IMG/VR virus record: IMGVR_UViG_2563366821_000011
Length of the DNA: 13,293 nt
Direction: 5' to 3' (one strand)
Source of the DNA: a virus
Lineage: Duplodnaviria > Heunggongvirae > Uroviricota > Caudoviricetes
This document shows positions 1 through 13,293 of this stretch, piece after piece. The position numbers and the translations under genes are program-made. Below the pieces are notes generated by a model. That model was given only the letters and a program-made list of their open reading frames with translations, had not been told where the DNA came from and did not search any database. Positions within the stretch are counted from its first letter, which is position 1. Every line of letters starts with the position of its first letter.

Positions 1-669
1 ATGTGTGGACGCTTTGCCCAATCCCAAACGCGTGAAGATTACCTCGCGTTTCTCGCGGAAGATATTGAACGCGATATTCCCTACGATCCCGAACCTATTG
101 GCAGATACAACGTCGCGCCGGGAACCAAAGTCCTTCTGCTCAGTGAACGTGATGAACACCTTCATCTGGATCCGGTTTTCTGGGGATATGCTCCCGGATG
201 GTGGGATAAACCGCCGCTGATTAACGCCCGCGTAGAAACTGCCGCAACCAGTCGCATGTTTAAACCGCTCTGGCAACATGGTCGGGTAATATGCTTTGCC
301 GATGGCTGGTTTGAGTGGAAAAAAGAAGGCGACAAAAAACAGCCTTATTTTATCTATCGCGCTGATGGACAACCTGTTTTTATAGCCGCGATAGGTAGCA
401 CACCGTTTGAGCGCGGTGACGAAGCCGAAGGAGTTTTAATTGTCACTGCAGCAGCAGACCAGGGCCTGGTAGATATTCATGACCGCCGCCCGCTGGTACT
501 GTCGCCAGAAACTGCGCGGGAATGGATGCGGCAAGACATTGGTGGTAAAGAAGCCTCAGAAATCGCTACCAGAAGCTGTGTGCCAGCAAACCAGTTCATC
601 TGGCACCCTGTGTCGCGCGCGGTGGGTAATGTTAAAAACCAGGGCGCGGAGTTAATTCAACCTGTTTGA
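1..669 (+). CDS. yedK: SOS-response-associated peptidase (SRAP) / abasic-site processing protein YedK, 222 aa
   Basis: ORF opens with MCGRF (the N-terminal Cys2 nucleophile typical of SRAP proteins) and matches YedK of E. coli as I recall it. ATG at 1, TGA at 667-669. Confidence 0.9.
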   Translation: MCGRFAQSQTREDYLAFLAEDIERDIPYDPEPIGRYNVAPGTKVLLLSERDEHLHLDPVFWGYAPGWWDKPPLINARVETAATSRMFKPLWQHGRVICFADGWFEWKKEGDKKQPYFIYRADGQPVFIAAIGSTPFERGDEAEGVLIVTAAADQGLVDIHDRRPLVLSPETAREWMRQDIGGKEASEIATRSCVPANQFIWHPVSRAVGNVKNQGAELIQPV

Positions 670-864
670 TAAGCCTGGAGATTATCTACACCTGGATGGA
701 CATCATTGTACTATGCCCCGTACATGCCCCATCACATCCTCAACATCAAAGTATTAGAGCCTTGCAAACCATTATGCGTCTCAGTTTGTCTCATCTATCT
801 TACGCAAAAAAAATAGAACTAATATCAAGCGGCGCTATATTGCGTATTAAATAAAACCACCTCA

Positions 865-887
865 GGTGATGCTGCCAACTTACTGAT
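865..887. repeat. IS1 left terminal inverted repeat (about 23 bp)
   Basis: GGTGATGCTGCCAACTTACTGAT, imperfectly complementary to 1610-1632. Confidence 0.85.
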
Positions 888-919
888 TTAGTGTATGATG
901 GTGTTTTTGAGGTGCTCCA

Positions 920-1195
920 GTGGCTTCTGTTTCTATCAGCTGTCCCTCCTGTTCAGCTACTGACGGGGTGGTGCGTAACGGCAAAAGCACCGCCGGACAT
1001 CAGCGCTATCTCTGCTCTCACTGCCGTAAAACATGGCAACTGCAGTTCACTTACACCGCTTCTCAACCCGGTACGCACCAGAAAATCATTGATATGGCCA
1101 TGAATGGCGTTGGATGCCGGGCAACAGCCCGCATTATGGGCGTTGGCCTCAACACGATTTTACGTCACTTAAAAAACTCAGGCCGCAGTCGGTAA
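920..1195 (+). CDS. insA: IS1 InsA (transposition repressor / N-terminal part of the InsAB transposase), 91 aa, GTG start
   Basis: Translation [22 protein letters not shown]... with a CxxC...CxxC zinc finger and an HTH. Stop TAA at 1193-1195. Confidence 0.9.
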
Positions 1196-1617
1196 CCTCG
1201 CGCATACAGCCGGGCAGTGACGTCATCGTCTGCGCGGAAATGGACGAACAGTGGGGCTATGTCGGGGCTAAATCGCGCCAGCGCTGGCTGTTTTACGCGT
1301 ATGACAGGCTCCGGAAGACGGTTGTTGCGCACGTATTCGGTGAACGCACTATGGCGACGCTGGGGCGTCTTATGAGCCTGCTGTCACCCTTTGACGTGGT
1401 GATATGGATGACGGATGGCTGGCCGCTGTATGAATCCCGCCTGAAGGGAAAGCTGCACGTAATCAGCAAGCGATATACGCAGCGAATTGAGCGGCATAAC
1501 CTGAATCTGAGGCAGCACCTGGCACGGCTGGGACGGAAGTCGCTGTCGTTCTCAAAATCGGTGGAGCTGCATGACAAAGTCATCGGGCATTATCTGAACA
1601 TAAAACACTATCAATAA
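1114..1617 (+). CDS. insB: IS1 InsB reading frame (catalytic part of the InsAB transposase, made by -1 frameshift at AAAAAAC 1171-1177)
   Basis: 167-aa ORF in the -1 frame relative to insA that overlaps the insA 3-prime end. The A6C slippery motif sits at 1171-1177. Confidence 0.85.
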
Positions 1618-1632
1618 GTTGGAGTCATTACC
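1610..1632. repeat. IS1 right terminal inverted repeat (about 23 bp)
   Basis: Reverse complement GGTAATGACTCCAACTTATTGAT matches the left IR at most positions. Confidence 0.85.
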
Positions 1633-1663
1633 TCTGATCCCATGGTAATTCAGCTGTTATTTT

Positions 1664-2650
1664 CTATTTAAGAATAAAACGGTATTTACTGTCAGGAGTG
1701 CTTTGCTGATCAAGTAGCAGTGAACGACATGGAGCAGTCAAAACCCGAGCATAACTACCATCAGGGCTTATGTTAATGTAACAAACCTTGCCCTTAACAC
1801 TATAATTTTCGGGGACGGATGCCTTTGCTGATACAGTAAATTTAAGGGTATGCCAGCCCGTTTTTTGCTTGTAGCTTGAAACCGAATGGAAATCATCTGA
1901 GTACTTATTTAACCCTGGAAACATGCTGCGCAGTGCGGGGATGGAATCTTCTATTATTTTATCGTTGGTTTTAATGTTAAAAACGCTGGTTTCAGTAGAA
2001 GCTACTGCTTTGGCATTTCCCCATTTACCAGCGAACACAATCATTCCCACGAAAAATATTGCTACAAGAACTAACACTCCCCCCAACACTACTACATGAG
2101 GCTTCCGGCTTCTGGTTGGTACAGTTGCGACTGATTTTGCACCGCTTTCCGATGGAGGTGATAGAGTTTTACTCTCATCACGAATATTCAGCAGATCATC
2201 AAAATAACCAAACACAGCCTGCAACTGCTCTTTGTCTAGGCCTTTAAGATGGGTTGTACCGAAATGCTTCAGACAGTATCTGTCACGGTCAAGACGATAC
2301 CCAGGGTCAGTAAGCGCCATTATTTTGCTGACCAGAAGATTACAGTCCTTCATATTCTGGATCTGTTGTGCATATCTCTGAAGGATCTCAACCGCACCAT
2401 GATAATCAGCCGCAGTCATTTCATTAACTGTTTTGGTATTAAGTTTCGTGTGGATCGTCATCCATAGCTCGCGCTTACTTTCCCCCAGATCAACCAATTC
2501 ATCCATCAATCTGTGTAAATCGCGTTTTTGCAGCAACGAAATTGGTTGCTGGGCCGAAGGAAGTATGTCAGCAGAATAGTTATGAATGGTAACATCACCG
2601 CTGACAACGTTACCCACATCCCCGTTAACTGTTTGCTTCTCTTTACTCAT
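1664..2650 (-). CDS. Hypothetical single-pass membrane protein, 328 aa, translationally coupled to the prophage repressor
   Basis: 987-bp ORF in an AT-rich region (about 37-40 percent GC by hand count). Its ATG overlaps the repressor stop in an ATGA. One strongly hydrophobic segment (VVVLGGVLVLVAIFFVGMIVFAG, about aa 185-207) is flanked by basic residues. The N-terminal motif GDVGNVVSGDVTI resembles the repressor C-terminal tail. I recognise no known family. Confidence 0.7.
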   Translation of the reverse strand: MSKEKQTVNGDVGNVVSGDVTIHNYSADILPSAQQPISLLQKRDLHRLMDELVDLGESKRELWMTIHTKLNTKTVNEMTAADYHGAVEILQRYAQQIQNMKDCNLLVSKIMALTDPGYRLDRDRYCLKHFGTTHLKGLDKEQLQAVFGYFDDLLNIRDESKTLSPPSESGAKSVATVPTRSRKPHVVVLGGVLVLVAIFFVGMIVFAGKWGNAKAVASTETSVFNIKTNDKIIEDSIPALRSMFPGLNKYSDDFHSVSSYKQKTGWHTLKFTVSAKASVPENYSVKGKVCYINISPDGSYARVLTAPCRSLLLDQQSTPDSKYRFILK

Positions 2651-3108
2651 CTTCTCTTGGTATTTTTGTTCATTATTCCACCTGTTCCTATGGTTACGTT
2701 ACCTTTGATAACATTCCCCAGAACATCTCCATGAATAACCTGTTCCGCCCGTTCTCTGGAGGAGCCAGTAGTCAAGGCCGACAAAACTGAACCTTTGACC
2801 TGTAATGGTGCCTGCCGGTAGTGCTGCAGTAACTCCATTTCATCACGTGATAAAGTTATACCTGATGACTCCCCGGTAAGAATGAACTGTACATTGGCCC
2901 CAATTCTTGCAAAGGCTGCAAGTAACTCACCTCCGGGAACAGCAACCCCTCGTTCATATTTCCCCCACATTTCTCTTGAAACGCCACAAAGGGCTGCTAC
3001 TTCAGCCTGCTTGAGTGATAACCGCGAACGCTCAGCTTTGAACCGCGACGCGCAAAGAGAATCAAAATTCACACAAACCTCATTGACAATGAGAACAATA
3101 GTTCTCAT
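2647..3108 (-). CDS. XRE/Cro-C1-type HTH transcriptional repressor (prophage c-repressor analogue), up to 153 aa
   Basis: HTH motif LSLKQAEVAALCGVSREMWGKYERG. Transcribed divergently from the early operon, as for Mu c. The start is uncertain: ATG at 3108 lies inside the operator palindrome and has no SD (possibly leaderless), while an in-frame GTG at codon 13 is preceded by GAGG. Confidence 0.75.
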   Translation of the reverse strand: MRTIVLIVNEVCVNFDSLCASRFKAERSRLSLKQAEVAALCGVSREMWGKYERGVAVPGGELLAAFARIGANVQFILTGESSGITLSRDEMELLQHYRQAPLQVKGSVLSALTTGSSRERAEQVIHGDVLGNVIKGNVTIGTGGIMNKNTKRR

Positions 3109-3111
3109 AAT
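3083..3111 (+). promoter_or_regulatory. Putative sigma70 early promoter (Pe-like): -35 TTGACA (3083-3088), 17-bp spacer, -10 CATAAT (3106-3111)
   Basis: Consensus -35, ideal 17-bp spacing and a 5/6 -10, lying 48 bp upstream of the ner-position gene whose SD is AAGGAG and ATG is at 3159. Confidence 0.5.
3089..3108. promoter_or_regulatory. Putative operator: perfect palindrome ATGAGAAC-N4-GTTCTCAT within the early promoter spacer
   Basis: 8-bp perfect inverted repeat arms with a 4-bp spacer between the -35 and -10 of the rightward promoter. It overlaps the first codons of the repressor ORF. Confidence 0.5.
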
Positions 3112-3158
3112 CTATCACATATAAAACAAACATCATTGCATCAACAAAGGAGACAACA

Positions 3159-3347
3159 ATGACTTCCGAACAAGTTAAAAATCTCTTCCGTCAGCGTGGT
3201 ATCACGTTTACCCGCTGGGCCGAAGAACACGGCTACAGCCGCAATGAGGTCTATCGTGTTCTCAATGGACAGACCAAAGCTCGTTACGGCAAAGCCCATG
3301 AAATTGCCGTAAAACTGGGATTAAAACCCACGTCAAATGCGGCATAA
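3159..3347 (+). CDS. Small HTH DNA-binding protein in the ner position (Ner/Cro-like early regulator), 62 aa
   Basis: Strong SD AAGGAG 7 nt upstream. HTH-like segment TRWAEEHGYSRNEVYRVLNGQ. First gene of the rightward operon, opposite the repressor. Not obviously similar in sequence to Mu Ner. Confidence 0.65.
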   Translation: MTSEQVKNLFRQRGITFTRWAEEHGYSRNEVYRVLNGQTKARYGKAHEIAVKLGLKPTSNAA

Positions 3348-3399
3348 ATTTTCCACATATGCAACAGGTTATCACATATTGCAAAAATGGAAATGTGAC

Positions 3400-3708
3400 A
3401 TGAGTAAAGTAAATATTTCCAGTTCTGGGACCCGCATCCTACGTGTACTCAAAGCTCTACGCGGTCATGCTCTGAACGGTGTTTCTAACGGTGAACTGGC
3501 ATCAGCCCTGGGGGAGTCCCCGGCGAATATCAATCGAGCACTTAATACCCTTATTGAAGAGGGACTGGCCATGAAATTAGAGAACGGACGTTTCGCACCG
3601 GGAATCCAGTTACTACAGATCGCCATGGCTCACAGTCACGAGATGGCGCGTGCACAGGATCGTATTAACGAAATCAACCAACGAGTTATTTCAGGTAGTC
3701 GTTTGTAA
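3400..3708 (+). CDS. Winged-HTH DNA-binding protein (IclR/MarR-like N-terminal domain only), about 103 aa
   Basis: Motif ILRVLKALRGHALNGVSNGELASALGESPANINRALNTLIEEGLAMK resembles an IclR-type wHTH. Start chosen at ATG 3400 (weak SD); an alternative in-frame ATG at 3337 overlaps the upstream gene. Confidence 0.55.
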   Translation: MSKVNISSSGTRILRVLKALRGHALNGVSNGELASALGESPANINRALNTLIEEGLAMKLENGRFAPGIQLLQIAMAHSHEMARAQDRINEINQRVISGSRL

Positions 3709-3718
3709 GGAGTAATCA

Positions 3719-4633
3719 ATGGGACGCACCAAATCACCCGTTAACACTGAACTGAATGTTGAGGTTCCGCTGTCAGATAACATCAATGTCAATTTGAACG
3801 CTATGACACAGCATCGCATGGAAATTATGCAGCAGTTTGGTGATGGACTGCCTTATGAACGTGATCGCATTGTTCACGAAGCACGTTTTTATATGGCGCA
3901 GAGTGCTGAATCTATGCTGGAAGCGGGTAAGCGGCTGATCATCTTAAAAGAAAATGAGCCACACGGTGATTTTACAAACATTTTAGAAAATGAACTCGGA
4001 CTTGCACCACAAGTTGCTCGCCGCATGATGCAAGCCAGTATGAAGTTTTTGGGAGAAGGTGATGAGCCAACAAAACGCTCAACGTTGAGCGTTTTGGGGA
4101 AAGCCAAACTGTACGACCTGATGGTTCTGGATAATGAAGAACTTGATGAATTGGCCGACGGCGGCACAGTTGCCGGCCTGACGCTTGACGACGTTGATCG
4201 CATGTCAGTACGTGAATTGCGTCAGGCCCTGCGCGAAGCGCGCGAAACCAACGCAGCACAACAGCGCGTACTCGCCGACAAAAATGAAAAAATAGATTCA
4301 CTCTCCACCAGACTGGAGAAGAAATCCCGTATTCAGCCGCCTGAGCCTGATGAGGAGGTTAAGAAGCTGCGGGCGGAAGTAACAGCATTAGCGGTTGAGG
4401 CGGAATCTGCTATCGCCGTCCGACTGTCCAGCGCTTTTGAGACGCTGTGCGCATATTGTGCTGAAAACATGATTGATACCCCCAGAGACTTCATGGCAGG
4501 CCTGGTCTGTCAACTGGAAAGCACAGCGCGTAGCCTGCGCTCCACATTTGACCTGCCGGACGAGCCAACAGGCAATGCAGCGCCTTCATGGCTGACTGAG
4601 CCGACGCCACAGATTAACGGGCTGGAGGCATAA
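3719..4633 (+). CDS. Hypothetical early protein, DUF3102-like N-terminal region plus coiled-coil and acidic C-terminus, 304 aa
   Basis: SD TAAGGAG 6 nt upstream of ATG. Motif HGDFTNILENELGLAPQVARRMMQASMKF resembles what I recall of DUF3102. Stop is 3 nt before the transposase ATG. Confidence 0.6.
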   Translation: MGRTKSPVNTELNVEVPLSDNINVNLNAMTQHRMEIMQQFGDGLPYERDRIVHEARFYMAQSAESMLEAGKRLIILKENEPHGDFTNILENELGLAPQVARRMMQASMKFLGEGDEPTKRSTLSVLGKAKLYDLMVLDNEELDELADGGTVAGLTLDDVDRMSVRELRQALREARETNAAQQRVLADKNEKIDSLSTRLEKKSRIQPPEPDEEVKKLRAEVTALAVEAESAIAVRLSSAFETLCAYCAENMIDTPRDFMAGLVCQLESTARSLRSTFDLPDEPTGNAAPSWLTEPTPQINGLEA

Positions 4634-4636
4634 CCA

Positions 4637-6406
4637 ATGAATGCTGCCCTGACTGAACGACTGGTTTATGTCGCCCGCGCGGCACGTGACGCGGGGCATG
4701 GTAAACGCGGTGCAATATACGACGCTGCCTGTGCTGAACTTGGCATGTCCCGCGCCACTCTGCTGCGCAGGCTGAAGGAGGTCTCTGTGACTGATAAACG
4801 CAAAAAACGCGCCGATGCCGGGCGCAGCGCCCTGACCCGCGACGAAGCCGCGCTGATATCTGCCACACTGCGTGAGGCCACCCGCAAGAACGGTAAGCGT
4901 CTCTATTCCATCGCAGATGCAGTGGAAACCCTACGGGCTAACGGCTTTATCACCGCAGGCAGAACAGATGAAACCACCAGTGAGTTTTTCCCGTTGTCTG
5001 AAGATGCCATCAGCCGTGCTCTGCGTAACTATGGCCTGCACCCGGAACAACTGGATGCCCCTGCACCACATACCGAAGTGGCCAGTCTGCATCCCAATCA
5101 TGTCTGGCAGATTGACGCCTCACTCTGCACGCTTTACTACCTGAGCAATGGACATAAAGGGCTGCAGGTGATGGACAGCGCGAAGTTCTACAAGAACAAG
5201 CCCGCTAACCTTGCCCGTATCGCCAGTGACCGCGTGTGGAGTTACGAGATTACCGACCATGCCAGCGGCTGGATTTACGTTGAGTATGTGACGGGCGCGG
5301 AATCAGGTGAGAACCTGTGTTCTGTGCTTATCAACGCCATGCAGGAGCGTGGCGGCGCAGACGTGCTGCACGGCGTGCCGAAAATACTCTATCTCGACCC
5401 CGGCTCGGCAAACACCGCGGGTATGACGAAAAACATGTGCCGCTCACTGGGCATCGACCTGATAGCGCACAAGCCGCATAACGCCCGCGCCACCGGACAG
5501 GTGGAAAAGGCGCGTGACATTATCGAACGCAAGCTGGAGCCGGGGCTGAAGTTCCGGCCGGTTCACAGTCTGGAAGAACTCAACGCGCTGGCCGCGAAAT
5601 GGCGCAGCCACTTTAACGCCACGGCTGTTCACAGCCGCCACGGTAAAACCCGCACGGATATCTGGCTGAAGATTACTGCTGAGCAGCTGAAAAAAGCGCC
5701 TTCCGTTGAGGTATGTCGTGAACTGGCTGTGGCGGCACCAGAACTCCGCAAAGTCACGCCAAAACTTCGTGTCTCGTTCCGGGGCACTGAATTTGACGTA
5801 TCAACGGTACCGGGCGTACTGGTTGGTGAAAAACTGATGATTACCCGTAACCCATGGCGCAGCGATGTGGCACAGGTGGTTCTGACCGGTGAGGACGGCC
5901 ACGAGACGTTCTTCCTGGTCGAAGAGGTCAGAAAGAACGAGTTTGGCTTTGCTGAAGGCGCGGCGGTATTTGGCGAAAGTTACAAAGCCCTGCCGGAAAC
6001 CTCGGCACAGATGGCGGCAAAAGAAACTGAAGCGCTGGTTACCGGTACAGACAACGCTGCAGATGCAGCCGCCGCACGCAAGGCGAAGGCGCTGCCGTTC
6101 GGCGGGCGGCTTGACCCGTATAAACATATCGACGACACCACACTTCCGGCCTATATGCCGAAGCGTGGTCAGGCCTCTGACGTACGCGGGCCGCGCACTG
6201 AACAACGTCCCATGACTCATGTGGAGGCCGCGAAAGCCCTGCGCGATAAGTTCAGCGCCGACGGCCTTACCTGGACGCCGGAACATTACCGCCAGTTAAC
6301 GGCACAGTACCCGGACGGCGTACCGGAAGCTGCACTGGATGAAGTCATGGCCACGCTGACCACGCCGGCACGCAGCAGTGTTATCAGCATTGTTAACGGC
6401 AACTGA
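4637..6406 (+). CDS. Mu-like DDE transposase (A protein), 589 aa
   Basis: N-terminal HTH, then an rve-type catalytic core with D160 (HVWQIDAS), D254 (LYLDPGS) and E290 (ATGQVEKA; D-35-E spacing). Located immediately upstream of the AAA+ B gene. Confidence 0.9.
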   Translation: MNAALTERLVYVARAARDAGHGKRGAIYDAACAELGMSRATLLRRLKEVSVTDKRKKRADAGRSALTRDEAALISATLREATRKNGKRLYSIADAVETLRANGFITAGRTDETTSEFFPLSEDAISRALRNYGLHPEQLDAPAPHTEVASLHPNHVWQIDASLCTLYYLSNGHKGLQVMDSAKFYKNKPANLARIASDRVWSYEITDHASGWIYVEYVTGAESGENLCSVLINAMQERGGADVLHGVPKILYLDPGSANTAGMTKNMCRSLGIDLIAHKPHNARATGQVEKARDIIERKLEPGLKFRPVHSLEELNALAAKWRSHFNATAVHSRHGKTRTDIWLKITAEQLKKAPSVEVCRELAVAAPELRKVTPKLRVSFRGTEFDVSTVPGVLVGEKLMITRNPWRSDVAQVVLTGEDGHETFFLVEEVRKNEFGFAEGAAVFGESYKALPETSAQMAAKETEALVTGTDNAADAAAARKAKALPFGGRLDPYKHIDDTTLPAYMPKRGQASDVRGPRTEQRPMTHVEAAKALRDKFSADGLTWTPEHYRQLTAQYPDGVPEAALDEVMATLTTPARSSVISIVNGN

Positions 6407-6416
6407 GGAGGAAAAC

Positions 6417-7583
6417 ATGCTGGTACTGAAGCAGCAACTGAAAGAGGCCCGTATCCCACAGGCGGTGGTGGCGAGAGCTGTCGATGTTTCTGAGGCCACG
6501 CTGGCCCAGATTGTGAATCATAACGCGTGGCCCCGCACCAGCCCCGGAGAAGTGCGCCGGCGTCTTGCGTCCTGGCTGGAAAGTCAGGGGATTGATACAA
6601 CGAAGAGTTTTGATGCTGTACAGGGCGCAGCCACGCCCCGTACAGCGGGTACCACAGATAAAACGAGCCTCAGTGAGGAAGAGAATATGTTACTCAAAAA
6701 ACAGGTGTTATTTCCAGCAACCAAAAAAGCGTTTGGTCTTTTCCGTGACCCGTTCGCCGATGAAGCCATGCAGGGTTCTGATGATGTGTTCACCACCCCG
6801 GACATTCGCTACGTGCGTGAGGCGTTGTACCAGACAGCCCGTCATGGTGGGTTTATGGCCGTCATCGGTGAGTCCGGTGCGGGTAAATCCACGCTGCGCC
6901 GCGACCTGACTGAACGTATCAACCGCGAGAATGCGCCGGTAATTGTTATCGAGCCATACATCATCGCTATGGAAGACAACGATGTGAAAGGGAAAACCCT
7001 GAAGGCAGCAGCGATTGCCGAAGCCATTATCAGTACCATCGCACCACTGGAAAGCATCAGACGCAGTCAGGACGCCCGCTTTCGCCAGTTGCATCGCGTC
7101 CTGAAAGACAGCAGCCAGGCGGGGTTCAGCCACGTTTTGGTGATTGAGGAGGCCCACAGTCTGCCCATTCCGACACTGAAACACCTCAAACGCTTTTTTG
7201 AGCTGGAGTCCGGTTTCAAAAAACTGCTGTCCATCGTGCTGATTGGCCAGCCGGAACTGGCGACAAAACTGTCTGAACGCAATATGGAAGTCCGTGAAGT
7301 CGTTCAGCGTTGTGAGGTGGTCGAACTTCTGCCTCTGGACAATAACCTTGAAGAATTTCTGACGTTCAAACTGCAACGGGCCGGTAAACAACTGACGGAC
7401 ATTATGGACGCCAGCGCAGTGGATGCCATACGTGCCCGCCTGAGCAATCCGGGAAGTCATCGTAAAAATATGGTCAGCCTGCTGTATCCGCTGGCCGTCA
7501 GTAACCTGGTGATAGCCGCCATGAATCTGGCCGCTGAAATCGGGGTTCCACAGGTCAACGCTGACGTTGTCAAAGGGGTTTAA
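6417..7583 (+). CDS. Mu B-like AAA+ ATPase (transposition target DNA activator), 388 aa
   Basis: SD GAGGAGG directly upstream. N-terminal HTH (QAVVARAVDVSEATLAQIVN), Walker A GESGAGKST and Walker B VLVIEEAH. An in-frame internal ATG with its own SD lies at 6687. Confidence 0.85.
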   Translation: MLVLKQQLKEARIPQAVVARAVDVSEATLAQIVNHNAWPRTSPGEVRRRLASWLESQGIDTTKSFDAVQGAATPRTAGTTDKTSLSEEENMLLKKQVLFPATKKAFGLFRDPFADEAMQGSDDVFTTPDIRYVREALYQTARHGGFMAVIGESGAGKSTLRRDLTERINRENAPVIVIEPYIIAMEDNDVKGKTLKAAAIAEAIISTIAPLESIRRSQDARFRQLHRVLKDSSQAGFSHVLVIEEAHSLPIPTLKHLKRFFELESGFKKLLSIVLIGQPELATKLSERNMEVREVVQRCEVVELLPLDNNLEEFLTFKLQRAGKQLTDIMDASAVDAIRARLSNPGSHRKNMVSLLYPLAVSNLVIAAMNLAAEIGVPQVNADVVKGV

Positions 7584-7585
7584 TA

Positions 7586-7855
7586 ATGAAATCCACCACA
7601 GGTATCAACCAGCAAATCAGCAAAGTGCAGTCAGCCATTATGGCGCTTAAGGCGACGAACACGGATGTACAAAGCATCACCATCAGGGGTAACAAACCTG
7701 TCATCCGCGTTTCCCGGAGTGCGCATTGCATGCGCATGCTTGAGCAGGGAAAGGCCTGTTATCTGTATACCGGACATGACCACAGGGGATATTTCCGTCA
7801 GGGCGTTTTCGAACTGCACGGCTGTCGCGTCGTGTGGCCGGAATCTTTGTGGTAA
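7586..7855 (+). CDS. Hypothetical early protein, 89 aa
   Basis: ATG 3 nt after the B stop, with SD-like AAGGGG upstream. No recognisable motif. Confidence 0.55.
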   Translation: MKSTTGINQQISKVQSAIMALKATNTDVQSITIRGNKPVIRVSRSAHCMRMLEQGKACYLYTGHDHRGYFRQGVFELHGCRVVWPESLW

Positions 7856-7882
7856 TCAGCACAACAGGAGGAGTCATAAAAT

Positions 7883-8413
7883 ATGGCAAAAAGTACAAAA
7901 GGGGCAAAACGTATCAAAGCCGCAGCAGCACTCTGGGTGCCGGGGACACGCGAAGAGGTCATTGAGGGAATCAGACTGCTTGGTGACGCGCAACGTGAAC
8001 TGGTCAGGGCTGAAACAGAAATGAATGACACCATTGGCGACATCACTGCACGTTATGCCCCGCTCACCGAGAGCCTGAAAAAACGCATGGCCGAACTGCA
8101 GTCCGGTATCCAGACATGGTGTGAGGCGCACCGTGATGAACTGACCGGCAACGGGAAGGTGAAGTTCGCTAACCTCACCACCGGCGAGGTGCAGTGGCGA
8201 AACCGTCCGCCGTCAGTCAGCATTCGCGGGGCGGATAATGTCATTGAACTGCTGAGACGTCTGGGGCTTGAGCGCTTTATTCGTGTAAAGGAGGAAATAA
8301 ATAAAGATGCCATTCTGAATGAAAAAGAGGCCGTGAAAAATATTCCCGGTATTTCCATTAAAAGCGACATTGAGGATTTTTCAATAATTCCTTTTGAGCA
8401 GGATGTGCAGTAA
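7883..8413 (+). CDS. gam: Host-nuclease inhibitor Gam (Mu Gam family, Ku-like DNA-end binding), 176 aa
   Basis: Strong SD AGGAGG. Co-linear with Mu Gam as I recall it: MAKxxKRIKxAAAxxVP..., TEMNDxI, WCEAxRDELT, PPSVSIRGxDxV, GLxRFIRxKxEINKxAIL and C-terminal EDFSIIPFEQ. Confidence 0.9.
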   Translation: MAKSTKGAKRIKAAAALWVPGTREEVIEGIRLLGDAQRELVRAETEMNDTIGDITARYAPLTESLKKRMAELQSGIQTWCEAHRDELTGNGKVKFANLTTGEVQWRNRPPSVSIRGADNVIELLRRLGLERFIRVKEEINKDAILNEKEAVKNIPGISIKSDIEDFSIIPFEQDVQ

Positions 8414-8510
8414 ACACACCACGTTAATTATTTAATAAAAACATTTTCTTTTTTATTCCGGCGTCAGCGCCGTGGGCTTCTGCACGCCGGAAACAGAGGA
8501 GAATTAAATT

Positions 8511-8705
8511 ATGATATTTAAATGTATTCAGTGCGAGAGGGATATAACAGCCCTGCGTTTTCACAGCGCCATCGCCGTGATGTCCGGTAAGTATCACATA
8601 CCTGCAGTACGTGTCACCCTGGTCTGCCCGTACTGCAGCCAGCATTTTTCGGCGGACGTGCCCGTCATGGAATTCTCCCGCCCTGACAGGGAGGACGCGC
8701 AATGA
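8511..8705 (+). CDS. Small zinc-ribbon protein, 64 aa
   Basis: SD GAGGAG. Two CxxC pairs (C5/C8 and C39/C42). Its stop overlaps the next start in an ATGA. Confidence 0.55.
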   Translation: MIFKCIQCERDITALRFHSAIAVMSGKYHIPAVRVTLVCPYCSQHFSADVPVMEFSRPDREDAQ

Positions 8706-8974
8706 TTACCCCACAGGAAGCACGACAGCGCACCCGAACCCTTGTTGAACACTATGTCAACGAGTGTGAATGCCGCGACCTCACCGATGTGAATCACGTC
8801 CTGACGGCGCTAATCAGCATGGCCACACAGGCCATTGTGGCGACCAACGGAAAGGAGGCTGCCCTGCAGGTACTGATGAACACACTCACCCACACGGCAG
8901 AGCATGAGGTGCCGTACCGGATGGAAACCACTGCAGAAGGCGGCCTGCACATCACCGTCAGCCGGAAGCACTGA
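8702..8974 (+). CDS. Hypothetical early protein, 90 aa
   Basis: ATGA overlap with the upstream ORF. Codon usage matches its neighbours. Confidence 0.5.
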   Translation: MITPQEARQRTRTLVEHYVNECECRDLTDVNHVLTALISMATQAIVATNGKEAALQVLMNTLTHTAEHEVPYRMETTAEGGLHITVSRKH

Positions 8975-8983
8975 GGGCGCGGC

Positions 8984-9280
8984 ATGACACGAAACACCGA
9001 ACTCACCCGCACCGCCCTCTACCGTCTGGCCCTGCAGCGTTTCGGGCCGGACGCACAGGCCCTGAAACTGGCAGAAGAGGCCGCTGAACTGGCGGCCAGT
9101 GCCGCCCGCAACCTGAACGGACAGGGCAGCGAAAGTGACCTCGCGGCAGAGCTGGCAGACGTGGAAATCATGACAGAGCAACTGCGCCTTCAGGGGATGG
9201 ACCGGCTGATTGACTTCCACAAACAGAAAAAACTGGAACGTCTGGCTGCACGACTGGGCGTGATTTACACGAACGAGTAA
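8984..9280 (+). CDS. MazG-like nucleoside triphosphate pyrophosphohydrolase domain protein, 98 aa
   Basis: Motifs KLAEEAAELAASAARN and AAELADVEIMTEQL resemble the acidic EExxE and E-x-x-D metal-binding helices of small MazG/HisE-like NTP-PPases. SD GAGGG upstream. Confidence 0.6.
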   Translation: MTRNTELTRTALYRLALQRFGPDAQALKLAEEAAELAASAARNLNGQGSESDLAAELADVEIMTEQLRLQGMDRLIDFHKQKKLERLAARLGVIYTNE

Positions 9281-9294
9281 CCGGGAGGCATTCA

Positions 9295-9510
9295 ATGGCT
9301 GACATACTCAGGGAAATCACCGCATGGACACTGATTCTTACTGGCCTGGCGACATGCCTCAGTGCGGGGGCAGCCCTGGCTGCCCTGCTGATGCACATAA
9401 CAACACAGTGGTTATGGGAAAAGCTTAAAGCAGCATACAGCCTGAAAGAGCTGTCCGACGCTGTCCGGGCATGGAAACGGCAGAAAAATACCGGAGATAC
9501 AGAACAATGA
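9295..9510 (+). CDS. Small membrane protein, 71 aa
   Basis: SD GGGAGG. Hydrophobic helix ITAWTLILTGLATCLSAGAALAALLM. Its stop overlaps the next start in an ATGA. Confidence 0.5.
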   Translation: MADILREITAWTLILTGLATCLSAGAALAALLMHITTQWLWEKLKAAYSLKELSDAVRAWKRQKNTGDTEQ

Positions 9511-10190
9511 CAGACCAGAATAAACACATTGAGAAACTGAAAAAGTTGCTGGCGCTGGCCGCATCCGGCAACCCGCACGAGGCCGCTCTGGCACTGCGCC
9601 GAGCCCGTAAACTGATGGATGTTCACGGCATCACACATTCCGACATTGCTATGAGTGATATTGATGAAACCATCAGTCACTACTGGCCGACAGGCAGTCT
9701 CCGTCCACCGCGCTACATGCTGGGCCTGATGAACATCATCCGCGAGGTATTTGGTGTTAACTCCATCATTCACCCCGGCACGCACCCGTCTGTGGGGTTC
9801 TACGGCAACCGGGAACGTGCGGCACTGGCTGCATACACCTGGGAAGTGCTGGCCCGTCAGCTGAAAAAGGCGCGTCAGCAGTATATCAGTGCACAGAACA
9901 AAAGAATAAAAACCGCCACCCGCACCAGCCGTGGAGACCAGTTTGCCGAAGGCTGGGTGCTGGCCGTTATCAGTGAAATACAGTCCTTTGCCCTGACCGA
10001 TGATGAGCGTGAACTGATGCAGCAGTGGCTGGAACATAAATACCCGCAGACGCAAACCACCAGGGCGCGTAAACCGGGAAGAAGCCGCAATGGCGACGCC
10101 TCGCGCTATGCGGGGTTTCGTGAAGGGCAGAACGTCAGACTGCACCGCCCGGTCAGTGGGCAGGAACAACAGAAACTGGAGGCCAGATGA
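9507..10190 (+). CDS. Hypothetical early protein with DUF2786-like N-terminal motif, 227 aa
   Basis: N-terminus IEKLKKLLALAASGNPHEAALALRRARKLMDVHGI matches the conserved DUF2786 motif as I recall it. ATGA overlap with the upstream gene, SD GGAGA. Confidence 0.6.
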   Translation: MTDQNKHIEKLKKLLALAASGNPHEAALALRRARKLMDVHGITHSDIAMSDIDETISHYWPTGSLRPPRYMLGLMNIIREVFGVNSIIHPGTHPSVGFYGNRERAALAAYTWEVLARQLKKARQQYISAQNKRIKTATRTSRGDQFAEGWVLAVISEIQSFALTDDERELMQQWLEHKYPQTQTTRARKPGRSRNGDASRYAGFREGQNVRLHRPVSGQEQQKLEAR

Positions 10191-10417
10191 TTACGCTATC
10201 AGGTAACAGCCGGAAATTAAAAGCCTGCCGAATATCTGCCAGATACCTTTTTGCCCGCGCCTTTTTTAAGAACGTCAGGCCGGGGATCACAATTGGTGTT
10301 ATTGCCGGACGCGAACAGGTTGAAAAATACATGTCAGGTGCATGGTGGAATAACGACCCTGTCATTGCTGCCCGTAATATTCATATCAGTTGGGGGGATA
10401 TTCAGAATGACGGCTGA
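10187..10417 (+). CDS. Hypothetical small protein, 76 aa
   Basis: ATGA overlap with the upstream gene; basic N-terminus. Weakly supported. Confidence 0.4.
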   Translation: MITLSGNSRKLKACRISARYLFARAFFKNVRPGITIGVIAGREQVEKYMSGAWWNNDPVIAARNIHISWGDIQNDG

Positions 10418-10622
10418 ATCTGTTGTATGTGCCCTGTTCTGGTATTGTTTTGTCGGTTGGTGTACTGCTGAACTGCACCGCCGTTCAGGGTTTTATTCAC
10501 GTTACAGTGGTGCCGGCTACTGGATTAGCTGGTCGGTGATGTTCCTGTGCTGGCCTGTGGCGCTTCCTTTATATGTCGATTATATCGGTGGCGCAGGTAA
10601 AAGGAGCAACGATGATGACTAA
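10407..10622 (+). CDS. Small membrane protein, 71 aa
   Basis: SD GGGGGGA 8 nt upstream of ATG. Two hydrophobic, Trp/Cys-rich segments (VVCALFWYCFVGWC and WISWSVMFLCWPVALPLYV). Confidence 0.45.
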   Translation: MTAESVVCALFWYCFVGWCTAELHRRSGFYSRYSGAGYWISWSVMFLCWPVALPLYVDYIGGAGKRSNDDD

Positions 10623-11064
10623 ACAACGTCTTATCCAGCTCATTCATATTGCCCGTAATGAACTGGGTATGGATGAAGACACCTACCGCCAGATGTTACA
10701 GGGGCTGACCGGTAAAGCCTCAACCAAAGGAATGGATACCACACAACTAAACTGCGTGCTGGAATCCATGAAAAGGAAAGGCTTTCGCGTTAAGCCTGCC
10801 AGAAAAGCCAGCTCCGGTTTACCGCTGGATAACCATCCGCAGTCCAGGAAAATCCGTGCGCTATGGCTTGAAATGGCTGCTGCCGGCATTGTTCGTGACC
10901 GTTCAGAAAATGCATTAGCGCGGTGGATCAAGCGGGAAACGGGCATCAGCGCCCTGCGCTGGCTCAATACTGAACAGGCAAGCAGTGTTATTGAGAAACT
11001 GAAGAAGTGGCAGCGCAGAGCTGCGGGAGTAAAACATGAGCGACCTGAATCAGTTTCGAAGTAA
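10612..11064 (+). CDS. gemA: GemA-like protein (Mu gp16 family, DUF1018), 150 aa
   Basis: SD AAGGAG 5 nt upstream. N-terminal motif KQRLIQLIHIARNELGMDEDTYRQMLQGLTGKAS is typical of Mu gp16/GemA-like proteins. Lies immediately upstream of mor, as in Mu. Confidence 0.7.
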   Translation: MMTKQRLIQLIHIARNELGMDEDTYRQMLQGLTGKASTKGMDTTQLNCVLESMKRKGFRVKPARKASSGLPLDNHPQSRKIRALWLEMAAAGIVRDRSENALARWIKRETGISALRWLNTEQASSVIEKLKKWQRRAAGVKHERPESVSK

Positions 11065-11434
11065 AGGGCCGGAACTCCTGGTGGAACTGGCACAGCATAC
11101 CTCTGAGACCGTTCGCGAGATTATTGATATTGAGCCCGCAATTGCCGACCAGATTGGTCAGGCCGTCGCGAACCGAATGATGCAGGTCTGGGGCGGGCAA
11201 AACGTTTATTTCCCGATGGGCATGGTATGGAAGGTCAGTCAGCGCGACCGGGAAATCTTCAGGGAGTTTAACGGACGCAACCACCACGAACTGGCCCGCA
11301 ATTTTGGTGTTTCGCTTCAGTGGGTCTACAGCGTGGTTAAGCGGGTCAGAAAAGAAGAACTGGATCGGATGCAGGGCAGGTTGTTTGATGAAGATCTGCC
11401 AGAGGAGACGAAAGACGTTAACAAATCCAGATAA
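11036..11434 (+). CDS. mor: Mor-family transcriptional activator (middle operon regulator), 132 aa
   Basis: Motifs GGQNVYFP and FNGRNHHELARNFGVSLQWVYSVVKRVRK match the Mor/C family HTH region. Last gene of the early operon. Confidence 0.85.
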   Translation: MSDLNQFRSKGPELLVELAQHTSETVREIIDIEPAIADQIGQAVANRMMQVWGGQNVYFPMGMVWKVSQRDREIFREFNGRNHHELARNFGVSLQWVYSVVKRVRKEELDRMQGRLFDEDLPEETKDVNKSR

Positions 11435-11479
11435 TTCCTGCTTGTTAAAGTCCTTTCAAAAATCTCCTTATTGTATAAG

Positions 11480-11511
11480 AGCACGGTAGACCCTTTACCG
11501 TGCTTTTTTTA
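11480..11511 (+). terminator. Rho-independent terminator-like hairpin (stem AGCACGGTA / TACCGTGCT, 7-nt loop, T-run)
   Basis: Perfect 9-bp inverted repeat immediately followed by 6-7 T, 46 bp after the mor stop. It could also serve as a dyad protein-binding site. Confidence 0.6.
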
Positions 11512-11548
11512 TGCTCTCTATGTAATATTCAGGATGCAGGGAGAAAAT

Positions 11549-12181
11549 ATGTTTGACGTTTCGTTATTAAATCTGCCATGGGCAACACTGGTGACCCTGA
11601 CCAGTGGCTATATTGGGTATTTTATTGCGAATGTGGGGCTGAAGGATCACCACAAACCCATTGAGGTGACTTTTTCTTCGCTGATTTTTGGCCTGACAGC
11701 AATGATGGCTTACCAGGCTGTTATGTGGGCAGGTCTGAATGCCTGGCTGGCAACCCCCCCAGCACTTCTGTGTGCCGTTACATGCGGTGCGTGGTGGCGC
11801 AGGTACGGTCGCAAATGGATGTACAGATTACTGTGGAATAATGATATTTCATGGTCTGACAATACCAGCTCAGCATGGCAGGCAATGTTTGATCAAACAG
11901 GCTTCAGCGTCACCGAGGTCAGAGTGATTCTTCGCGATGGTTCCGGTATGATGTCACGGCTGCCAGGGAACTTTGAAGAGTGGCCTAACGGTCCGTTTAC
12001 CCTGGGAAATAAAGGCGATATGGTTCTTTACGTCACGCACAGCAGCCCTTCAGGAAGTAACGAATGGGAAGAGTATAAAGGCGTGGTTGATAAGTACTGG
12101 GGAGCTCTGGCAACCTATATTCCAGCAGATCAGATTGCCAGAGTGGAGATCAGGCGCGTTCGTGCAACGAACGATGAATGA
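11549..12181 (+). CDS. Hypothetical membrane protein (three N-terminal TM helices plus a soluble C-terminal domain of about 120 aa), 210 aa
   Basis: SD GGGAGA 7 nt upstream of ATG. Three hydrophobic segments in the first 85 aa, followed by RRYGRK. Occupies the position where Mu carries C. No family recognised. Confidence 0.65.
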   Translation: MFDVSLLNLPWATLVTLTSGYIGYFIANVGLKDHHKPIEVTFSSLIFGLTAMMAYQAVMWAGLNAWLATPPALLCAVTCGAWWRRYGRKWMYRLLWNNDISWSDNTSSAWQAMFDQTGFSVTEVRVILRDGSGMMSRLPGNFEEWPNGPFTLGNKGDMVLYVTHSSPSGSNEWEEYKGVVDKYWGALATYIPADQIARVEIRRVRATNDE

Positions 12182-12343
12182 TGTTTATTTTTTCCCTGGA
12201 GCAGGAGCTGCCGGCATAGTGGTTTTATTGGCAGAGGAAGACGATTCTCCTTTTCTACCGGAATCGCGCTCGAACGTCACAATGTGCTTGCTTTTGGGCT
12301 TTTCTGAGTAATCCAGGCTGTCATGCTTATTGTTTTGAGTAGT

Positions 12344-12421
12344 CATTGGAATCATCCTTTTTGTTACGGGTCATGTTTCAGCAAACTCGATTCTAAGTTG
12401 CCAGGAAGGATGATTTCAATG
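12344..12421. repeat. Inverted repeat, 16 bp arms (CATTGGAATCATCCTT / AAGGATGATTTCAATG, 15/16 match) separated by 46 bp
   Basis: Direct reading of the sequence: arms at 12344-12359 and 12406-12421. Confidence 0.5.
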
Positions 12422-12499
12422 CCCGACTTATCTATCGTATAGCGGAAAAGAATTTCAGTTCTGTTCACCAGAACCCATGTTAACCCACTCCAATTCGTT

Positions 12500-12532
12500 A
12501 TTTATCTCACGGATCCCCCTTCATTTATCTCA
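12500..12532. repeat. Direct repeat ATTTATCTCA x2 (12500-12509 and 12523-12532), 23-bp register, next to the dgcQ junction
   Basis: Exact 10-bp direct repeat, each followed by a GATC-containing segment, lying just inside the foreign DNA. Confidence 0.4.
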
Positions 12533-13293
12533 TGTCTGATCAACCAGTAGTTATTACTGTCTACCGGAACACTGACGGTAACCTGCGGTTCAGTATTGCT
12601 GGCGTGTTCCGGTTGCGAAGTGAACCAGCGTACCGCGCGGTGACGATTTTCTCGTTGTGAATGGCCGATAAACCAGGGTTGGGTGACATAGCCGTAATAA
12701 CGCGTTGGTACATTGCGCGTAAACAAGGTCGGCAGCGTCGAAACGTAAAATCCAGCACGCGAGACATACACCGCCTGTTCAACCATCGACGAGGAGTTGT
12801 GCGCCAGTCGCAGCAAGTAACCAACTTCCAGTGCAGCGGTAATTTCATTGTCGAGGCTTTCATTTTCGCGAGACAGGAGATTCCCCTCGCTGACTAATGC
12901 ATCCGATACGCCATTGACTGGCAGGGTGCGCCGTCGGTTGAGTTCGATTTGCCAGGTGTGCTCGTCGCGATGCTGTTCGAACTCGGTTACGGCATTACGC
13001 AGAGAGGTGAAATCCAGTGGCGCCACGAGAGCTTCGCGCATGCCATTACGCAAAAAGATCAGTTTGTCGACGTTATACTGCAAATGCTTATCGAGCGCGT
13101 TGGCTACGTTTTCCAGATGATTACGCTGGCTGGAGATATAGGCATCTTCCAGCACCACCACTTCACGCCAGGTGAGCAAGGTGGAAAAAAGCAATACCAC
13201 GATAAAGCAGAGATTAACGATATGACCAGGCCCCAGGCGGCGTGCGAGTTTTTTCAACCAGCTCTGGTTTTCCATTTTTGTCTCGTGCTGCAC
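12502..13293 (-). pseudogene. dgcQ: 5-prime fragment of a DgcQ/YedQ-like membrane-anchored diguanylate cyclase gene (N-terminal TM and periplasmic sensor domain only; GGDEF domain absent)
   Basis: The ORF starts at the window edge (GTG) and reads [15 protein letters not shown]..., with a signal-anchor TM ([18 protein letters not shown]) and a periplasmic-type domain. It ends after 263 aa with a short unrelated tail ([13 protein letters not shown]) and has no GGDEF motif. Identity is from memory of E. coli YedQ (about 564 aa). Confidence 0.55.

Follow-up and report, generated by a model that had tools for sequence, protein, structure and literature searches.

Tandem 23-bp repeats at a dgcQ junction as the very probable native terminus of a BcepMu/B3-like transposable prophage

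The stretch of viral DNA analysed here (the window, 13,293 nt, IMG/VR record IMGVR_UViG_2563366821_000011) carries the yedK region, a complete IS1, a segment of a Mu-like prophage and the 5′ part of an interrupted dgcQ gene, in this order (Table 1). The best match to the window is strain SCU-172, which contains a complete prophage of 37,491 bp inserted in dgcQ, and window positions 1633-12542 are colinear with this prophage, without a gap and at 99.96% identity. In the SCU-172 annotation, a Mu-like early operon on the + strand spans from the genes of two small DNA-binding proteins to that of a 210-aa hypothetical protein. The full order is an HTH repressor on the − strand, the two small DNA-binding proteins, a DUF3102 protein, an rve transposase, an ExeA-like ATPase, Gam, gp16/GemA, Mor and the 210-aa protein, after which follow a 53-aa hypothetical protein on the − strand and the truncated dgcQ. 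On the other side of the repressor, and oriented divergently to the early operon, SCU-172 has its lysis, head, tail and invertase genes, which are followed by the 3′ part of dgcQ. The immunity region of these prophages is mosaic: the window (1664-3108, − strand) and SCU-172 carry a 153-aa HTH repressor and a 328-aa protein (phrog_10002), whereas the sister prophages (loci L004-L007) have repressors of other kinds, a DNA adenine methylase and another set of small genes.

Table 1. Coordinates of genes, repeats and other features in the window
Feature	Position	Strand	Remarks
yedK region	1-864		left of IS1
IS1, complete, 768 bp	865-1632	+	abuts the junction 1632/1633
Surviving prophage segment	1633-12542	+	nt 26582-37491 of the intact 37,491-bp prophage
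DDE (rve) transposase, B3/BcepMu type, 589 aa	4637-6406	+
AAA+ (ExeA-like) transposition ATPase	6417-7583	+	TnpB equivalent
Mor-family late activator	11036-11434	+	last conserved gene of the early operon; PF08765, E = 3.6e-43
210-aa predicted membrane protein (phrog_12870)	11549-12181	+	accessory, between Mor and the end
53-aa ORF (WP_001571575.1, phrog_15726)	12185-12346	-	hydrophilic, reads inward from the phage end; good Shine-Dalgarno
Inverted-repeat arm, 16 nt	12344-12359	-	over Shine-Dalgarno and AUG of the 53-aa ORF
Sigma-70-like promoter, TTGAAA-18-TAGAAT	12390-12419	-	upstream of the 53-aa ORF; hexamers conserved in diverged relatives
Partner inverted-repeat arm	12406-12421	-	overlaps the -35 box
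Block 84-112 nt from the terminus	12431-12459		candidate packaging or host-factor site (putative function)
Inner 23-bp repeat unit	12497-12519	+	second candidate transposase site; core ATTTATCTCA at 12500-12509; family consensus
Outer terminal 23-bp repeat unit	12520-12542	+	candidate transposase site; core ATTTATCTCA at 12523-12532; end defined by five insertions
Conserved 3′-CA	12541-12542		final phage bases, end of the outer unit
Target hexamer ACCAGT in dgcQ	12543-12548		one copy of the 6-bp target-site duplication; partner copy deleted in the window
dgcQ, 5′ part	12543-13293	-	first 751 nt of 1695, interrupted by the phage

An earlier note on this sequence had placed the end of the dgcQ similarity somewhere between 12505 and 12545, and the breakpoint does fall inside this range: when 12100-13293 was compared by megablast with 5,426 complete E. 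coli genomes, more than 5,300 of them showed homology to dgcQ from 12543 onwards. The last foreign bases (...ATTTATCTCATGTCTGATCA, ending in TGATCA) are those up to 12542, and the apparent continuation of the ORF to 12502 is fortuitous and lies in phage DNA. Just inside this border, the 10-nt sequence ATTTATCTCA is found as two exact copies (12500-12509 and 12523-12532) whose starts are 23 nt apart, with a GATC 3′ of each copy (12512-12515 and 12538-12541), so that the positions and the register given in the earlier note were confirmed. The two 23-bp units around these cores agree at 14 of 23 positions, i.e. at the 10 nt of the core and at four more. The terminus is made up of two tandem, imperfect 23-bp repeats, with the core TGAGATAAAT when read inward, and of a conserved terminal CA that follows them.

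Besides the SCU-172 prophage, we retrieved four more full prophages, located in gudD, a DUF4153 gene, kefF and clbG/H. All five of these independent full-length E. coli copies run 5′-TGATG...TGATCA-3′, starting with TGATGCGCC... and finishing with ...CTGATCA, and around each of the five the target is perfectly duplicated over 6 bp (ACCAGT, CCATGT, GCAAGC, ACAGGA and CCGCGC for dgcQ, gudD, the DUF4153 gene, kefF and clbG/H, respectively). The hexamer ACCAGT, which stands on both sides of the intact SCU-172 prophage, is present as a single copy in uninterrupted dgcQ, and the repeats are absent from uninterrupted dgcQ. The suggestion that an element terminus has survived here is thus borne out by five different insertion sites that share the same end sequence and, at dgcQ itself, by a break at 12543 next to a target that is duplicated around the intact copy, and the repeats turn out not to be native dgcQ-proximal sequence.

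The two ends of the intact phage mirror each other. A search of both strands of its 37,491 bp gives four copies of G[AC]GATAAAT and no more, two per end at nt 12 and 35, those of one end being inverted relative to those of the other. At both ends the 10-nt core occupies nt 11-20 (outer) and nt 34-43 (inner) from the terminus. Read inward, the early end is TGATCAGACA-TGAGATAAAT-GAAGGGGGATCCG-TGAGATAAAT and the late end is TGATGCGCCGC-GCGATAAATG-...-GCGATAAATG. The two GATC sequences, one overlapping the terminus (TGATCA, 12538-12541) and the other between the cores (12512-12515), are a property of the early end only. As the late end and the termini of most relatives lack them, we rejected GATC as a functional trait of the family. 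Control of the early end by Dam is a lineage-specific possibility only; many sister prophages encode a Dam-type methylase.

The 361-bp end (12182-12542) was found at full length in 118 of the 5,426 complete E. coli genomes and at many different loci, and the many loci that carry the element with intact duplications show its recent mobility. A blastn search with the same 361 bp against the phage collection gave no match; the deposited phage nearest to it, Escherichia phage PhiKM, is represented by a partial genome that lacks the ends. A 144-bp relic of the phage end lies on plasmid NZ_CP059908.1 (locus L010, 4001-4144), where it is unannotated. It corresponds to window positions 12389-12533 with 89.7% identity, both repeat cores being intact and the last ~9 nt diverged. 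The relic is also present at ~105 other plasmid places (ColV-type APEC plasmids) and on chromosomes (such as locus L011), and it adjoins an IS3-family fragment and a LysR/ankyrin/DUF2877/fdrA island.

The conservation of this terminus was assessed on loci that encode related transposases. We scanned 80 such loci, taken from one genome per species, for the pattern [core]-N12-14-[core]-N9-CA and found it exactly once in 51 of them, in Enterobacterales, Burkholderiales, Neisseriales and Pseudomonadales, always 2-8 kb downstream of the transposase gene and on the transposase strand. On the opposite strand, which served as the control, there was one match in 1.58 Mb. The remaining 29 loci had no match, some of these contigs being truncated. 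The matches represent 44 distinct termini with the consensus TGa..aGg..TGAGATAAat-N13-gaGATAAtt, and the terminal bases of these 44 related termini are TG. The transposase itself shares 99% identity with that of PhiKM, which its depositors assigned to Bcepmuvirus, 93% with the enzyme of Klebsiella phage KP12, 68-69% with the BcepMu and phiE255 enzymes and ~57% with those of Pseudomonas phages JD18, Fc02 and H71. In Pfam, it matches the rve core only, with no MuA-specific domains, and in NCBIfam it shows a sub-threshold similarity to the IS481 family. No Mu phage was among the 69 phage records matched by tblastn with the transposase, and a search of plasmids returned only IS481-family relatives with ~25% identity.

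The terminus is of an ordinary kind that has already been described for BcepMu/B3-like prophages. Imperfect direct repeats of 23 bp at the ends of phiE255, similar to those of BcepMu, were presumed to be transposase sites (PMC2920897), and TG...CA termini are characteristic of BcepMu-related prophages (PMC2628397). With BcepMu and phiE255, the prophage studied here shares these termini, the two 23-bp imperfect direct repeats per end, a related transposase with an ExeA-like ATPase partner and an early operon that reads out to this end with Mor as its last gene. The agreement with BcepMu extends to the layout of the ends (TGA-N8-G[AC]GATAWWT-N13-G[AC]GATAWWT, with cores at nt 12 and 35), those of BcepMu reading TGAAGAGAGGT-GAGATATTTC-N13-GCGATATTTC and TGAAGCGCGGC-GCGATATTTC-N13-GCGATAAATT, and to the position of Mor (gp01 of BcepMu), which is 364 bp away from the end there, with divergent late genes (cf. 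PMC5977238). There are differences as well: the core is GAGATATTTC in BcepMu but TGAGATAAAT here, the E. coli lineage has additional 210-aa and 53-aa genes between Mor and the end, and the terminal bases TGATCA include a GATC that is not conserved in the family. The B3-like phages have an inverted early operon (PMC5977238), and a 6-bp duplication is the footprint of B3/Tn552-family transposases (PMC8705779). Judged by published descriptions, Pseudomonas phage B3 and its relatives share with our prophage this operon orientation, a Tn552-related transposase, the 6-bp duplication and TG...CA ends (PMC5977238, PMC8705779), whereas the late genes and the morphology here are of the BcepMu/P2-like myovirus type.

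The earlier note had compared the repeats to the direct sites by which Mu-family transposases recognise element ends. As far as the arrangement of the sites is concerned, this comparison is apt. Phage Mu attL and attR, too, carry a terminal CA and, close to the ends, direct repeats of ~22 bp as sites for a DDE transposase, and Mu shares replicative transposition with an ATPase partner as well as the Mor/Gam/GemA early genes. It does not extend to the enzyme, which is a B3/BcepMu/Tn552-related rve protein with Pfam rve only and not MuA with its specific domains, nor to the duplications, which are of 6 bp (5/5 insertions) and not of 5 bp as in Mu. Furthermore, Mu has three MuA sites per end (L1-L3, R1-R3) in contrast to two here, and its late genes lie downstream of Mor/C on the same strand and run to the right end, whereas here they are divergent and beyond the repressor and the genome layout, early operon included, is inverted relative to that of Mu. 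The transposase of Tn552 footprints two directly repeated 23-bp motifs per end, and its duplications are of 6-7 bp. Tn552, from Staphylococcus aureus, has a transposase of a related family (PMC8705779; the BcepMu record's own note) but is a transposon and not a phage, and its relation to our prophage is drawn here from the transposase family.

Taken together, we consider it very probable that 12497-12542 is the native terminus, on the early-operon side, of a transposable (Mu-like) prophage of the BcepMu/B3 type that entered dgcQ by transposition, and that the repeats are the sites of its transposase. The proposed role of the repeats is based on analogy with Mu and with the two footprinted 23-bp repeats per end of Tn552, and on the published proposals for BcepMu and phiE255, from which we also infer the binding of the transposase and its stoichiometry. 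In such a scheme, each 23-bp repeat would bind one subunit of the phage DDE transposase, and the two repeats at this end would assemble with the two inverted ones at the other end into a four-site transpososome. The transpososome would nick at the 3′-CA, and the ends would be joined with a 6-bp stagger to target DNA captured by the AAA+ partner. With the partner end deleted by an IS1-associated deletion, the window would retain an intact but functionless half of a transposition substrate, and this copy, being one-ended, is presumably immobile.

From the window alone, one could argue that the repeats are a chance duplication or host sequence that belongs next to dgcQ. The number of 10-mer matches within the window is indeed insignificant (two compared with 0.64 expected, with at least two in 25 of 200 shuffles), and other, unrelated 10-nt repeats are found in the same 600 bp as the ATTTATCTCA pair. 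We nevertheless take the repeat as real because it is arranged as a mirror image at the other end of the intact copies and is conserved across the family. Given that uninterrupted dgcQ lacks the repeats, that the same end is found at many other loci and that the motif recurs across genera, there is next to no chance that coincidence or host sequence explains them. It is also improbable that the repeats, though real and terminal, are there for a protein other than the transposase, for example as a site for packaging (pac) or as an operator to which the repressor, Ner or Mor would bind. In BcepMu-type phages, packaging begins at the early ('left') end and a packaging site has been reported there (PMC2920897), which would suit a pac site, but a motif that is present at both ends, inverted and at equal distance from the CA, is what is expected of a transposase and not of a one-ended pac. 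An operator is difficult to reconcile with the distribution of the motif, of which no copies were found in the repressor/early-promoter region or elsewhere in the phage.

A further question concerns how the transposable prophage in the window lost its late genes. The earlier note had reasoned that, if an element terminus survives here, an internal deletion and not truncation of an end took out the late region, which on our reading would place that region formerly between Mor and the terminus at dgcQ. The gene order of phage Mu, in which late genes follow Mor and C, speaks for such a deletion, as only ~1.1 kb separates Mor from the end here. However, intact 37.5-kb relatives carry an identical Mor-to-end segment, and the gapless colinearity of 1633-12542 with the SCU-172 prophage means that nothing is missing between Mor and the end. 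In BcepMu, too, just 364 bp separate Mor from the end, and the late genes belong on the other side of the repressor, where the window has IS1 and yedK. We therefore give an internal deletion practically no credence.

Instead, the comparison with SCU-172 indicates that the late genes were lost by truncation of the opposite end, through an IS1-linked deletion, and not from the dgcQ side. In SCU-172, the same yedK-IS1 arrangement is found past the far end of the prophage, at a distance of ~3.7 kb, and rcsA, dsrB, yodD, yedP and the 3′ part of dgcQ lie between that IS1 and the prophage. Relative to this strain, ~30 kb are missing from the window, i.e. all late genes, the late-side terminus, the 3′ part of dgcQ, yedP, yodD, dsrB and rcsA, and the left-end sequence of the phage was not found in the window. 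From its position, the missing stretch looks like an IS1 adjacent deletion. The junction of IS1 and phage was not found in any complete E. coli genome of the collection. We also considered whether the window could be SCU-172 with the late genes just outside, and rejected this as the sequence to the left of 1633 differs (IS1 and yedK).

The 360 bp that separate the early operon from dgcQ had been described as an uncharacterised spacer. It is only in part a spacer, since 12185-12346 on the − strand is the annotated 53-aa ORF (phrog_15726), and outside the terminal repeats it forms an accessory and regulatory segment that holds this gene, its promoter and a covarying inverted repeat. The 210-aa gene (+) and the 53-aa gene (−) are convergent accessory genes whose presence is confined to this lineage and some relatives, such as Citrobacter braakii and IMG/VR contigs, and neither protein had a match in PADLOC, Pfam or NCBIfam. 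Most enterobacterial relatives are without the 53-aa gene, and in most the 210-aa gene is missing, their Mor gene ending ~150 bp from the terminus. An ORF of ~50 aa that shares a (D/E)(Y/F)SE.PK motif is open in Citrobacter braakii, a diverged E. coli copy and most diverged IMG/VR variants of the terminal module.

A scan of the region for promoters and terminators gave counts at chance level. We retained the TTGAAA-18-TAGAAT promoter upstream of the 53-aa ORF despite this because both of its hexamers are conserved in relatives, and dropped a terminator-like hairpin at 12475-12457, which is not conserved. The block at 12431-12459 (TGCAATAACCTTACAGTATGTGAAAA in relatives, diverged in the window) has a fixed position and is conserved in enterobacterial relatives only. 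Across six diverged variants, the inverted repeat over the start of the 53-aa ORF and the -35 box is 16-17 nt long, with 90% of the cells pairing and compensatory changes in two pairs; the pairing score was equalled by six of 500 shuffles, and the covariation is suggestive only. An Rfam scan of 11900-12700 at E ≤ 1 gave no match.

One tentative explanation, which we regard as possible but not likely, is that the spacer contains a small insulated expression unit in which the inverted repeat folds back and silences the 53-aa gene on host transcripts that read through. Transcripts entering from host DNA would carry both arms and the ORF would be silenced, whereas those from the phage promoter would be without the upstream arm and the ORF would be translatable. 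A candidate host source of such read-through would be dgcQ, whose reading direction is inward, on the strand of the 53-aa gene. A fold-back device that confers 'protection from outside activation' is present in IS10 and IS50; we know of none for the end of a transposable phage. Alternatively, the two arms may be inverted copies of a protein operator.

The finding leaves the current understanding of transposable phages unchanged. The IS1-linked deletion corrects the reconstruction of how the copy in the window decayed. Furthermore, the exact boundary is now fixed for a common E. coli prophage family, and the signature TG-N9-TGAGATAAAT-N13-G[AC]GATAAWT, in combination with a 6-bp duplication, serves to delimit such prophages family-wide.
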